From Savitreella phatthalungensis (lineage: Eukaryota): a DNA stretch of 64,000 bases. Position numbers and translations under genes: made by a program. Each line of letters starts with the position of its first letter. Positions within the stretch are counted from its first letter, which is position 1. The notes beneath the pieces were generated by a model. It was not told the DNA's origin and did no database searches. It saw nothing but the letters and a program-made list of their open reading frames with translations. The stretch covers positions 434,001 to 498,000 of the forward strand of contig AP039699.1 of assembly GCA_051599415.1 (NCBI GenBank). Direction: 5' to 3'. Shown here piece after piece: positions 20,392 to 24,483 of this stretch.

Positions 20392-21006
20392 TTAGGTGAA
20401 GAAGAGGATGAGAATGCAGAAGGCGATGACGACAGCGAGAATGACCGAATTGCGCTTCTGACGTGTATTGATCTTGGACAACAGACTGTTCATGCCTGGA
20501 ATCCGGTCAGCACTGGCACTCAGACGTTGTCCGATGTTCTGTAAACTGAGACGTTGTAAGTTGAATTCGTCGCGGGTTGCATACGCCTGTGCAAGGACAG
20601 CATCCGTCATGGAATGAGACGACTCGATCCGGTCGCGTTCGTTGAGCATGTATGCTTCCTCGCCACCGGCCGAACCTGTCGCCAACGATGCCTTGTGCCG
20701 TCGGATATCAGCATCCACATTGCCCAGCAGGTTTTCACGATCGCTCTGCTCGCGCAGACGTTGGATGACGCCTCTTGCAGATGCTTCGTGCTCTGCCAGG
20801 ACTTCTCTGTGACGTTCGAGGTGCTGTGCCTTGTTTCCCTTGACATTCTGCTGGTCGAGAGCTTTAGCAAGCTGCTCAAGCACGTCTCTGCGTTGGGAAA
20901 GCAATGAGTCCAAGTCAGCCTCGCTCGGCTTCTTCGACAGCAGTGTTTCGGTCTCATGCTCGAGCAGGCGCATCTCGGCACGAAGCGTGCCCCAAGACTT
21001 TGACAT
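20392..21006 (-). CDS. GOS1: Golgi Qb-SNARE Gos1
   Basis: W..LR.E.R.LE N-terminus; LERHREVL; ERDRIESSHSMTD..LAQAYATR; IPGMNSLLSKINTRQKRNSVIL followed by a tail-anchor TM. Confidence 0.93.
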   Translation of the reverse strand: MSKSWGTLRAEMRLLEHETETLLSKKPSEADLDSLLSQRRDVLEQLAKALDQQNVKGNKAQHLERHREVLAEHEASARGVIQRLREQSDRENLLGNVDADIRRHKASLATGSAGGEEAYMLNERDRIESSHSMTDAVLAQAYATRDEFNLQRLSLQNIGQRLSASADRIPGMNSLLSKINTRQKRNSVILAVVIAFCILILFFT

Positions 21007-21208
21007 CGCAGCTAGTGTGATTTATTGCGCGCTCTCCTTGAAATGTCTTGGGCTGGCACGGAGACGTGATTTCTTTTGGTGGTCGGGTGACGCGCCGAGA
21101 AAGGCGATGATTTTGACCTGTGTAAATAGACCTCGATACATAAATCGTATTTGCTCTTCCGGATCGCCTTGCGACAGGCCGTGATCAGAGGATCAGTGAT
21201 GTAGGGTG

Positions 21209-21919
21209 ATGCAGCTCAGCAATGGCCTCAATTTAAGGCAAGCCAGAAAGCTGCCGGTAGCTCTAGCGAGCGAAGACGATGCGAAGGACCATCCGCGACC
21301 GCTGCCGCCTAGATCATCCCTACGAATAGATGCAAAGGTTTTGGAGGGGGCCGAGGCAGTGGTCTATGACTTCGATGGCGCACATGACGAGCTCGAGAGA
21401 CAGAGAGCGAAAGCTGCGGCTGGAAGAGCCATGAGGACGGCCGAAAGGCGGCCGAGGTACATGCATGACCTGCTGGAGAATGCCGCTCAACGTCAGCGGG
21501 ACAAGCAGGCCGCCGATGAAGAGCGGCTTAGACGCGAACGGGACAAGCAGGAGGCCCTTGGCATCTCTGTCAAAGAGTCATTCATCACACCTGGCTATCA
21601 TGAACGTCAATGCAAACATGAGCATATGAGCAGCGACTCTGCGCCAAGGTCAAATGACCTTCCGGGTCGAAGCCCAGATCAGGGGGAACCAGCATCGCTA
21701 GCATTCAAGACTCAGGTATCTACGGACAGTCGAGTCATGACGAATCAGGTCGAGGAGCAGCGCGAGCACGAAGAGTCGTACAAGGCTCGTCGTGAAGCCC
21801 ATCGGCAGTCTCAGATTCGTGCTGCGCTGATACATAGGAACGACACAGCTGCGATCGATGCTGCCAGACAACGTTATTTCGAACGTGCACGTCTGCGCCA
21901 AAAGGAGGCCAACGCATGA
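21209..21919 (+). CDS. NSRP1/CCDC55-like (DUF2040) coiled-coil splicing regulator
   Basis: VYDFDGAHD, RPRYMHDLL..A..RQRD, KESFITPGY, C-terminal IDAARQRYFER. Confidence 0.8.
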   Translation: MQLSNGLNLRQARKLPVALASEDDAKDHPRPLPPRSSLRIDAKVLEGAEAVVYDFDGAHDELERQRAKAAAGRAMRTAERRPRYMHDLLENAAQRQRDKQAADEERLRRERDKQEALGISVKESFITPGYHERQCKHEHMSSDSAPRSNDLPGRSPDQGEPASLAFKTQVSTDSRVMTNQVEEQREHEESYKARREAHRQSQIRAALIHRNDTAAIDAARQRYFERARLRQKEANA

Positions 21920-21945
21920 TGGTATATGATATGATATGACAAGAT

Positions 21946-23151
21946 TTACAGCTTCGAGCTTGCCAACTTGATATCGTCCTGTTCGAGCGTCTGCCGCAAT
22001 CGCAAAATTGCCAAGTACTCAATCAGGCGCTTCTTGACCTTTTCCAAGCCGTAATGATCAGCATCCAATTGCTTGCGGGCTGCATCGATGTTTGTCTTGT
22101 CGAGCGACTGAGTCTGTAGCTGCTTCTTCCATGGAATCTCAATCAGGTTGTCGAGATACGTGCGAATCACCTGGTACTCTGCCTGTTGCGGTTGCATGCG
22201 TTTCAATCTTCTGAGCTCCTTCTCGGCGACGGTCCGCGCCTCGTCAGAGAGCTCAGCAGCATCGATGCGCTTGCGCAGCTCCGTTGCATCGTCCTCCTCC
22301 TCGTCATCCTTTTCTCCCGTCGCTTGAGACAACTCTTTCTTGATGGCGTTGAGCTTTTGCCGTAGGATGAATTCCTTCTGCTGCTTGTTCAAATTCTGGT
22401 CGACAGCCGTCGAGATCTTGCGCGACACTTTGACATCGGTCATTTGCTTTGTGACAATCTCGTAGACGAGCTTCAAGCGAGACACAACGTCTACAGCCTT
22501 GAGAATCGCCAACTTGTCGACATAGCTCCCCTCAACGACGGAGACCATCAAGTCGCACAGCTGTCCAGCAGAATCGCCCTCAGCCTTCTGGATGAATCCC
22601 TCCAGGCGGCGGAGAAGGACAGCTGGGAGCTTGAGTCCTTTGAGAGTCGTCACCAGCTCAACTGAAGCATCGCGCAAGGCCTCGAGCTGTTTTTGAGCAG
22701 CCTCGTCGTCGTCGTCAATGCCGCGTTCGTCGTGATGAAAGACGGCCGCCTCAAGCTGACTATCTGCACGATTATTGCTGCTGCTGCTGCCACTACTCGT
22801 AGTGCGCTTAACTTTTTCCAACCGCACACGAGAAAGGCCCTCCACGATGGCGACATAGGCACCATTGTTGCGCTCAACGCGTAGAATCTTGCCCATGCAC
22901 CCATAATCGAGCAGTGTGTCTTTGAGCTGATCGATCGAAATGTCTTTCGAATTGCTGGTGAGCGCTGCAACGGCTTCGGGTCGCTGTGGAACGCATGCGA
23001 CGAGATGCGGCGGGCTTCCGCTATAAATCATGCGTGAGATCGATTGCGCGACATCCTTGCGCTCGACCTGAACACGAAGGACGAGTGACGGAAAGAGGAT
23101 CTGCTCCTTGAGCAACGGGACAACAGGAAGGGTGCGCGGCAAGGGCGCCAT
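21946..23151 (-). CDS. Peroxisomal Lon (LONP2/Pln-type) N-terminal region only, with C-terminal PTS1 SKL; no AAA+ or protease domain
   Basis: LPVVPLLKEQILFPSLVLRV; VEGLSRVRL; QQKEFILRQKLNAIKKEL; KELRRLKRMQPQQAEYQVIRTYL..L.EIPW; ARKQLDADHYGLEKVKKRLIEYLA; then ...LASSKL*. No Walker A motif. Confidence 0.9.
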   Translation of the reverse strand: MAPLPRTLPVVPLLKEQILFPSLVLRVQVERKDVAQSISRMIYSGSPPHLVACVPQRPEAVAALTSNSKDISIDQLKDTLLDYGCMGKILRVERNNGAYVAIVEGLSRVRLEKVKRTTSSGSSSSNNRADSQLEAAVFHHDERGIDDDDEAAQKQLEALRDASVELVTTLKGLKLPAVLLRRLEGFIQKAEGDSAGQLCDLMVSVVEGSYVDKLAILKAVDVVSRLKLVYEIVTKQMTDVKVSRKISTAVDQNLNKQQKEFILRQKLNAIKKELSQATGEKDDEEEDDATELRKRIDAAELSDEARTVAEKELRRLKRMQPQQAEYQVIRTYLDNLIEIPWKKQLQTQSLDKTNIDAARKQLDADHYGLEKVKKRLIEYLAILRLRQTLEQDDIKLASSKL

Positions 23152-23685
23152 GAGTAGTTTGGAGTCAAATGTCTTTTGTCTGATAGTGGACAAGTGAGAG
23201 AGAGACAAACAGTGCAGACTTGAGAGAGTTGGTACGTTAAGTCGATTGTGGTGATCTTATTAAATCATACACCTAACCTTGAAGCTGTTGCGGGGGAATG
23301 TTGCCCCGGATGTTGCTCGGTTACGCAATTGATTGTGGATTATTCCAGTACGTACGTATGTACGTCTCTGACTTAAAGGAGATATCTTCGATCGAACAGT
23401 TTTTCAAGTGACCACAGTCCCGCTGCATATCGAAATGAAAAATTGAAAATTGCTGTGGATATCCGGCCATGTATCCCGGCCGAAACAGCGTCACGTGATC
23501 AGCTAGATCCTTTCAACCTGGACAGTTCATTCGGTCAGTCAGGACATAGCATATGCGTACTGACACGCTAACAGATCTGATCAAATCATGCAAACTTAGA
23601 TCCTGATTCATCCCATTTGCTACAGCAGAGAATCTTGCAATACTTCCACCGCGGAACCCCGGGTCGTCTGCGTGGCAGGTAACGG

Positions 23686-24483
23686 ATGCTGCCTCGAGCG
23701 CTATCATCTGGAACACTGCTGAAGCTCAGGCGAGGCGCGACTTGCTCTTGCTTTGCTGCATATTCAAGAGCAAGAACTCTATCCGTCGCGTCCCATCGGC
23801 TACAGCATACCCAATCAGGCACAAATCCGCCACCCGAAACAACGCCGTGGTATGTCGAATACAATCAAGGGTCACTTCAGCAGGACTTTGCGCCCAAAAA
23901 GCGCGCAAACGCTCAAGTGCCGGAGATTCCATCAGATAGCCCTAGGATCTTGAGTCCGCTGCTGGAATACCTATCGTTCGACGTCGGTTTGACAGACGTT
24001 TGCGTCGTCGATCTCCGCAAGGGCGCCGGATCTGACGAAGCTAATGATCCATGGGGTTATGGCGGTGCTGGAGTCATGTCAGTGCTTGCGACGGCCCCTC
24101 GAGCTGAGAGGCAGCTCATCAGATCGATCGATGCGATCAAACATTTCCTCAAGCAGGATCACCGCCACAGCGGGCTGCGTGTCGAGGGTCTTCAGTCTCT
24201 CAGGGACTCGCGAGTCAGGCGACGACGACGGCGGAAGATGCAAGGCAGGACGAATCTAGCAAGGCTTGAAGAGGAAGAACAGCTTCGCTGGCTGTTTGTG
24301 GATTGTGGCTGTGGTGAAGGAGATCTTGACGAGGCTCGAGTGGTCCTCCAGCTTTTTACCCCAGAAGGAAGAGCAGAGTTCAGGCTCGAGGACGTTTACG
24401 AAGGCATCGCCAACATGTATCACAGTGTCGTTCGTCCATCCGAAACAGACTCTGGACCTCTTGCGCACAGCTCACTGCTATAA
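23686..24483 (+). CDS. ATP25: Mitochondrial Atp25/RsfS (MALSU1-like) ribosome-silencing-domain protein
   Basis: Arg/Ser-rich presequence; PWYV; DVCVVDLR; RVEGL..RVRRRRRRK; WLFVDCG; LQLFTPEGRAEFRLE. Matches the N-terminal half of fungal Atp25. Confidence 0.78.
   Translation: MLPRALSSGTLLKLRRGATCSCFAAYSRARTLSVASHRLQHTQSGTNPPPETTPWYVEYNQGSLQQDFAPKKRANAQVPEIPSDSPRILSPLLEYLSFDVGLTDVCVVDLRKGAGSDEANDPWGYGGAGVMSVLATAPRAERQLIRSIDAIKHFLKQDHRHSGLRVEGLQSLRDSRVRRRRRRKMQGRTNLARLEEEEQLRWLFVDCGCGEGDLDEARVVLQLFTPEGRAEFRLEDVYEGIANMYHSVVRPSETDSGPLAHSSLL

Follow-up and report, generated by a model that had tools for sequence, protein, structure and literature searches.

To our knowledge, LonA proteases have been treated as single-chain machines throughout, from bacteria to human organelles. 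Other ATP-dependent proteases, such as HslUV and ClpXP, are made from two gene products, with the ATPase separate from the peptidase, and stand-alone Lon N-domain proteins, which contain PF02190 with neither AAA+ module nor protease, occur in both bacteria and eukaryotes. For Lon itself, van Dijl and co-workers reportedly expressed the ATPase and protease domains of the yeast mitochondrial enzyme (Pim1) as separate proteins in 1998, an indication that parts of Lon on separate chains can cooperate. A full-text literature search found no description of a split or two-gene natural Lon, nor of Lon fission in the Taphrinales, and neither "Lon" nor "peroxisom" occurs in the main text of the Taphrina deformans genome paper. 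The closest described system is the fungal peroxisomal enzyme LON2 (Pln), in particular SmLON2 of Sordaria macrospora, which in the account given in PMC7911957 is a single chain of 937 aa that needs its terminal SRL for glyoxysomal localisation. Also pertinent is the piggyback import of hetero-oligomers into peroxisomes, in which a partner with a weak PTS1, or none, enters along with a PTS1-bearing one; the known cases are mostly dually localised enzymes travelling on unrelated partners (PMC4680570, PMC5314374, PMC4422123).

The Savitreella proteins described here belong to the same sequence family as SmLON2, as that protein is presented in PMC7911957, and have its parts in the same order -- N domain, AAA+ module with Walker A and B, S16 protease with a Ser-Lys dyad, C-terminal PTS1 -- but where SmLON2 is one chain with one PTS1 they are two proteins, of 401 and 452 aa, with the PTS1-type ends SKL and SQL and with the cut between the helical bundle and the nucleotide-binding core. 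While the engineered Pim1 split was made in the laboratory, in a mitochondrial enzyme and between ATPase and protease, this one is natural, peroxisomal in type, upstream of Walker A and conserved across an order. Unlike HslUV and ClpXP, it leaves ATPase and peptidase fused; what forms the separate chain is the substrate-binding head plus a portion of the ATPase module. That chain (the N half) also differs from the stand-alone PF02190 proteins in having about 165 extra residues, aligning to the Lon helical linker and the helices before Walker A, in grouping with the N regions of LONP2 and in carrying a PTS1. In contrast to the piggyback cases outlined in the sources above, the Savitreella partners would be halves of one dedicated matrix enzyme. 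We consider it likely that an ancient gene fission, shared by the whole of the Taphrinales, has produced a two-chain peroxisomal Lon of the LONP2/Pln type, of which the ORF considered here encodes the N half.

The window, a stretch of 64,000 nucleotides from the leaf-surface yeast Savitreella phatthalungensis, contains the N half as one uninterrupted frame on the minus strand, the CDS occupying 21946..23151 and ending in TAA at 21946-21948; the assignment is based on the ORF list, the translation and 12 full-length orthologues. An earlier note, written from the letters of the DNA, had described an intact ORF of about 401 aa with the Lon N domain and pre-AAA helices, ending in -SKL and having neither Walker A nor a Ser-Lys protease domain, and the ORF list, the translation and a Pfam search agree with it on each of these points. 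PF02190, a hallmark of peroxisomal LonA, is the sole Pfam domain in the 401 aa and is covered in full (residues 7-235, 22447..23133, minus strand; E 6.2e-30, profile positions 1-200 of 200), with no AAA and no Lon_C; this is the Lon N-terminal substrate-binding domain. The AAA+ module with Walker A and B and the S16 domain with its Ser-Lys dyad, which peroxisomal LonA has on the same polypeptide, lie instead on a separate 452-aa protein, P0219. The N half does not belong to the class of PF02190-only N-domain proteins either; its residues 236-387 (21991..22446, minus strand) align to solved Lon over the helical linker and bundle and the final helix ahead of the nucleotide-binding core, a pre-AAA helix, DHYGLEKVKKRLIEYLAILRLRQ, standing at residues 365-387. 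Beyond this there is a 14-residue tail, TLEQDDIKLASSKL (21949..21990, minus strand), which maps to the variable linker of full-length LONP2 and closes with DDIKLASSKL, the PTS1 tripeptide SKL being encoded at 21949-21957 (minus strand) directly before the TAA.

The stop lies 26 bp (21920..21945) from that of a convergent NSRP1-like gene (21209..21919, plus strand; NSRP1_N, E 1.6e-17), just the distance reported previously, so that there is no space for additional exons. When the Neolecta LONP2 P0014, which has both AAA+ and protease, was compared with the 64-kb window by tblastn, the only significant match was at 22719..21970, which is the N half, the four remaining matches having E values of 0.13 or worse; the previous statement that no AAA+ or protease sequence of Lon appears elsewhere in the window therefore stands.

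A length-matched protein search with the N half found 863 proteins at E ≤ 0.001 among 7,994 scored, and the best 120 were listed. The list is headed by 12 close orthologues with E ≤ 1.2e-116, 55-76% identity and lengths of 335-452 aa, all with PF02190 only, two of which are from Protomyces lactucae-debilis (ORY84349.1) and Taphrina deformans (CCG82027.1). There follows a steep fall, the next match being a partial Neolecta LONP2 at E 2.4e-54. The family analysed further consists of the window protein (P0001) and these 12 orthologues, with P0015 (235 aa), P0020 and P0014 left out as fragments or as the non-split form. All 13 N halves terminate in the same linker, with the ends SKL (10/13), AKL (2/13) and FKL (1/13). 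The earlier note had asked whether related genomes have the same breakpoint and SKL; the 12 orthologues answer for the breakpoint, and by this comparison the truncation is not random, since all of them break off within that linker. Across the family, what follows LRLRQ varies in both length and sequence, yet xKL closes every one of the 13, and the idea that selection has kept the SKL of the N half is borne out. Twelve of the 13 ends, that of the window's protein included, fit the PTS1 consensus (S/A/C)(K/R/H)(L/M) quoted in PMC7911957, a match of sequence to pattern.

In a tree with the N regions of 21 full-length LONP2, the 13 N halves form one clade (SH-like support 1.0), whose stem is long at 0.59 substitutions per site. 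No close fused form came up when 1.84 billion cluster representatives, of whatever length, were searched exhaustively: the only close sequences were P0010 (395 aa), the family's own representative, and the 235-aa fragment P0015, and the best longer protein had 918 aa and 40% identity. As it is cluster representatives that were searched, a fused form inside a cluster led by another fungal LONP2 could have escaped the search. Six other proteins that resemble independent splits (P0040, P0045, P0073, P0077, P0085 and P0087) have been rejected as such; each goes on into the Walker A region before a frameshift or a fragment end cuts it short, and the Taphrinales family is thereby set apart from them. 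The intact LONP2 nearest to the split clade on the N-region tree is P0121 (885 aa, from Logan); its linker at the position of the break is very short (LRLKQQTSKIVVRDKGPILLL), and its last residues are -SHI.

When full-length LONP2 proteins are aligned with both halves, the N and C halves together cover the entire enzyme, neither overlapping nor leaving anything out. The break is located in the linker that separates LEYLAVLRLK from KSPILLLVGPPG, a linker whose length in full-length LONP2 varies from about a dozen residues to over sixty; the earlier note had likewise described a variable linker at this position. With respect to known structures, residues 160-341 of E. coli Lon 6u5z align to the N half, residue 341 lying opposite N-half residue 383, and the N-truncated Lon constructs 3m6a, 4ypl, 6on2, 6v11 and 7krz (523-555 residues) start at the equivalent of N-half residues ~288-292, so that their first ~100 residues align to the N half. 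Since the solved ATPase-protease bodies begin there, the C half is without about 100 residues of that body, and it is the N half that carries them; this is the chief reason to expect the association of the two to be obligate. Judged from these alignments, then, the break is inside the ATPase module and not at the usual boundary between N domain and AAA+.

The C half of Savitreella was found with the ATPase-protease part of the Neolecta protein as query, in a search in which P0219 (BFZ56668.1, 452 aa, named S. phatthalungensis) stood out among ordinary LONP2 proteins of 860-950 aa. It starts MSAIRAPIILLQGPPGTGKT / MSAIRAPIILLQGPPGTGKTS, 12 residues ahead of Walker A, and ends in QSQL. Its Pfam domains are AAA, which begins at residue 9 with position 1 of the profile, Lon_lid and Lon_C (E 2e-73), with no PF02190, and its catalytic motifs are KDGPSAG at 342 and GGVKEK at 384. 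A search with P0219 itself (seeded by shared words and covering lengths of 248-791 aa, the best 120 of 7,998 being listed) added two C halves, P0240 (446 aa, 88% identical to P0219, ending SHL) and P0241 (ORY81375.1 of P. lactucae-debilis; 457 aa, 79% identical, ending SLL). A fourth C-half model, P0500 (481 aa, also ending SLL), extends 24 codons upstream of the Met, with codons unlike Lon. Walker A, Walker B, the serine of KDGPSAG and the lysine of GGVKEK are present in all three of the C halves checked, and the position of the start has been read from four protein models: two NCBI annotations, one from ENA and one JGI ORF call. The gene for P0219 lies on a contig of 524,108 bp, equal in length to that of the window's N half, and presumably shares its genome and contig; if it is on that contig, its absence from the window places it at least 21.9 kb away on one side or at least 40.8 kb on the other. 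In Protomyces the halves lie on different scaffolds (P0241 on one of 560,494 bp, the N half on one of 616,673 bp) and are therefore unlinked. A separate ORF, beginning close to the AAA+ module and closing with a PTS1-type signal, had been named in advance as what would favour fission, and P0219, with its 452 aa and -SQL, is such an ORF; together with the Protomyces pair it supports the reading of a divided gene. The closest named full-length matches of both halves are of the LONP2 type ("Lon protease homolog 2, peroxisomal") among the matches listed, which puts both nearer to peroxisomal than to mitochondrial Lon.

No C half was seen to go with the N half of T. deformans, or with any of seven more that are Taphrina-like, either among the best 120 matches of the P0219 search or among the listed matches of the search with the Neolecta ATPase-protease part. 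A Taphrina C half would be expected to have about 75% identity and should accordingly rank within the best 120 of the former; the absence may nonetheless be a limit of the searches, given their length window, gene models split by introns and the restriction to the best 120. A metagenome scan with the C half gave 553 stretches encoding relatives, and the 80 loci kept, all 51-57% identical, included no Taphrinales C half and represent ordinary Lon, in all likelihood bacterial.

The C-terminal ends of the C halves differ from those usual in the intact enzyme. Among the 118 LONP2-like proteins listed from the Neolecta ATPase-protease search, 89 end in SRL, 7 in SQL, 5 in SHL and none in SLL; SRL is thus missing from 29 of these 118 and from all three of the C halves checked, and of the ends SQL, SHL and SLL only SHL strictly fits the consensus quoted in PMC7911957. 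There is a hint here that selection on the PTS1 of the C half has been relaxed, from C halves that are too few and too closely related to say more. Because SLL is outside the consensus, import of a C half with that end would need either piggybacking or a weak signal, and by analogy with the piggyback cases it may be that an SLL-ending C half rides in with its SKL-bearing N half.

Constraint on the N half was gauged by regression of N-region on C-region identity over the 210 pairs formed by 21 full-length LONP2, which gave N = 1.13 x C - 36, with r = 0.93. Between Savitreella and Protomyces, the N halves are 61.6% identical at a C-half identity of 78%, where about 53% is expected; between Savitreella and its closer relatives, the values are 78-79% at 89%, where about 64% is expected. 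By this measure the N half is constrained, relative to the C half, at least as strongly as in intact enzymes. The invariant columns of the 13-sequence alignment cluster in residues ~170-390, a stretch that takes in the helical part, and the most conserved part of all, residues ~240-387, is the one that packs on the ATPase core in solved Lon and not the substrate-binding domain. Against the N regions of full-length LONP2, P0001 has a median identity of 35%, as compared with 41% for those regions among themselves; together with the long stem of the clade, this means that some functional change after the split is possible.

Prediction of the two halves as a complex, which the earlier note had recommended, was carried out on two chains, one the N half from residue 240 to 401 and the other the complete C half, the alignments supplied not being used. 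The complex scored 0.64, while the best of three controls scored 0.10, and the runs agree in at least 97% of contacts, with a partner pLDDT of at least 74. Among benchmark pairs, 51 of 78 solved complexes came up to the score mark, as against 2 of 108 mismatched pairs; in eukaryotes, 39 of 65 solved pairs for which older structures offer no like complex did so, and 2 of 126 unrelated pairs. The modelled interface has 107-119 contacts, between N residues 302-386 (21994..22248, minus strand), the predicted docking surface, and C residues 4-33, 53-75, 114-123 and 145-164. The model passes its controls and supports docking of the halves, though it may reflect only their likeness to solved single-chain Lon, in which the same packing is seen.

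These observations suggest the following course of events. A fission in the stem of the Taphrinales would have severed the gene within its variable linker, after the final helix of the N-terminal helical bundle and ahead of strand 1/Walker A. Substrate-binding domain, long helices and helical bundle would all have stayed with the N half, which would have gained a new canonical PTS1 (SKL) at the break, while the C half would have become a separate gene with a new Met 5-12 residues before Walker A and would have retained the ancestral PTS1-type end, SQL in the case of Savitreella. PEX5 would then recognise each half by its own C-terminus, or the pair would enter jointly, with the stronger SKL carrying the C half. 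Inside, the helical bundle of the N half would dock on the nucleotide-binding core of the C half and so rebuild a normal Lon subunit, six such N+C pairs forming an active ATP-dependent protease/chaperone in the peroxisome matrix. The sequences show the truncation, the conserved PTS1, a separate C half with its motifs intact, where the break lies and that constraint has not been relaxed, while import, physical reassembly and activity are what we infer.

Other explanations have been weighed against this one. That the N half results from misassembly or sequencing error, or is a fragment of a recent pseudogene, is scarcely credible: artefacts of that kind do exist among the further PF02190-only matches (P0073, P0087, P0045, P0077 and P0085), but the identical end point and the PTS1 recur in 13 sequences drawn from NCBI, ENA, JGI and Logan, and the N half is strongly conserved. 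The site is also bridged by a Logan contig of 6,621 nt and depth 409 (run X2), which spans 21200-23204 with 0 differences and crosses both the stop and the intergenic gap; X2 is a second run of the same sample, separately assembled though not fully independent, and it gives no sign of the misassembly at the junction that, according to the earlier note, would overturn the case. Joining of the halves at the RNA level, whether by splicing from a donor near the stop, by trans-splicing or by read-through, is very unlikely. A donor-like GTAAAT does overlap the stop (AAGCTGTAAATC), as the earlier note had pointed out when it allowed for unusual splicing, but an xKL-stop preserved in 13 of 13 N halves with differing tails would be pointless if the tail were spliced out. 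The C halves, moreover, have a starting Met of their own, placed alike in all four models, with the upstream codons of P0500 unlike Lon, the Protomyces halves are on different scaffolds, and the convergent gene leaves only its 26 bp beyond the stop.

It is improbable, though less so than an artefact, that the N half acts by itself in the peroxisome, as a holdase, substrate adaptor or regulator, with the C half working as an N-less Lon or lost in some lineages. The recovery of 13 N halves as against 4 C halves would agree with this, as would the want of a Taphrina-branch C half among the best 120 listed matches in either C-half search and the long stem of the N-half clade; the partial complementation described in PMC7911957 for Sordaria LON2 lacking its PTS1 likewise implies that Lon functions can be separated from location. 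On the other hand, the N-half region that is best conserved is the one that packs on the ATPase core in solved Lon, the C half is without those ~100 residues, the predicted docking passes its controls, N-half conservation follows that of the C half as in intact enzymes or better, and the gap in Taphrina may lie in the searches. A mixed arrangement is possible but doubtful, in which an SKL-tagged Lon head would serve Taphrina as a stand-alone holdase or adaptor after loss or divergence of its catalytic half, whereas Savitreella and Protomyces would rely chiefly on the SKL for import and the C half, its own signal drifting (SQL, SHL, SLL), would piggyback.

If the reading of a fission into two cooperating halves is right, a whole fungal order shares a natural two-gene LonA whose cut lies inside the ATPase module, and Lon can receive its head and helical bundle in trans. 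The split enzyme would be a ready-made system for examining the role of the N region in ATPase coupling and in the choice of substrates. A PTS1 gained de novo exactly at the point of fission is also relevant to the question whether matrix enzymes enter the organelle as monomers or as complexes already assembled (PMC4422123, PMC4680570). Database labels can be corrected as well: the NCBI label "ATP-dependent Lon protease pim1" on P0219 looks wrong, the nearest relatives being LONP2, and the N halves are annotated "LON domain serine protease" though they have no protease domain.

Several minor features of the locus have been noted. A serine-rich insertion, TTSSGSSSSNNRADS, at residues 116-130 (22762-22806, minus strand), falls in a loop of the Lon N domain and makes it ~10 residues longer there than in any of the 12 orthologues. 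The Lon N half and the convergent NSRP1-like gene must have overlapping 3' untranslated regions, and a short TCATA repeat is found inside the 26-bp gap. The flanking ORFs, one at 20392-21006 (minus strand) with V-SNARE_C (E 3.7e-15) and one at 23686-24483 (plus strand) with a weak RsfS match (E 1e-4, just above the Pfam cutoff), look like ordinary housekeeping genes, with no link to Lon visible. Short contigs of 191-366 nt that are 95-99% similar to parts of 21200-23324 occur in a phyllosphere metagenome run (X4) and in runs X3 and X6 of two other organisms, none of them covering the stop region; close relatives or strains may be present in those samples.
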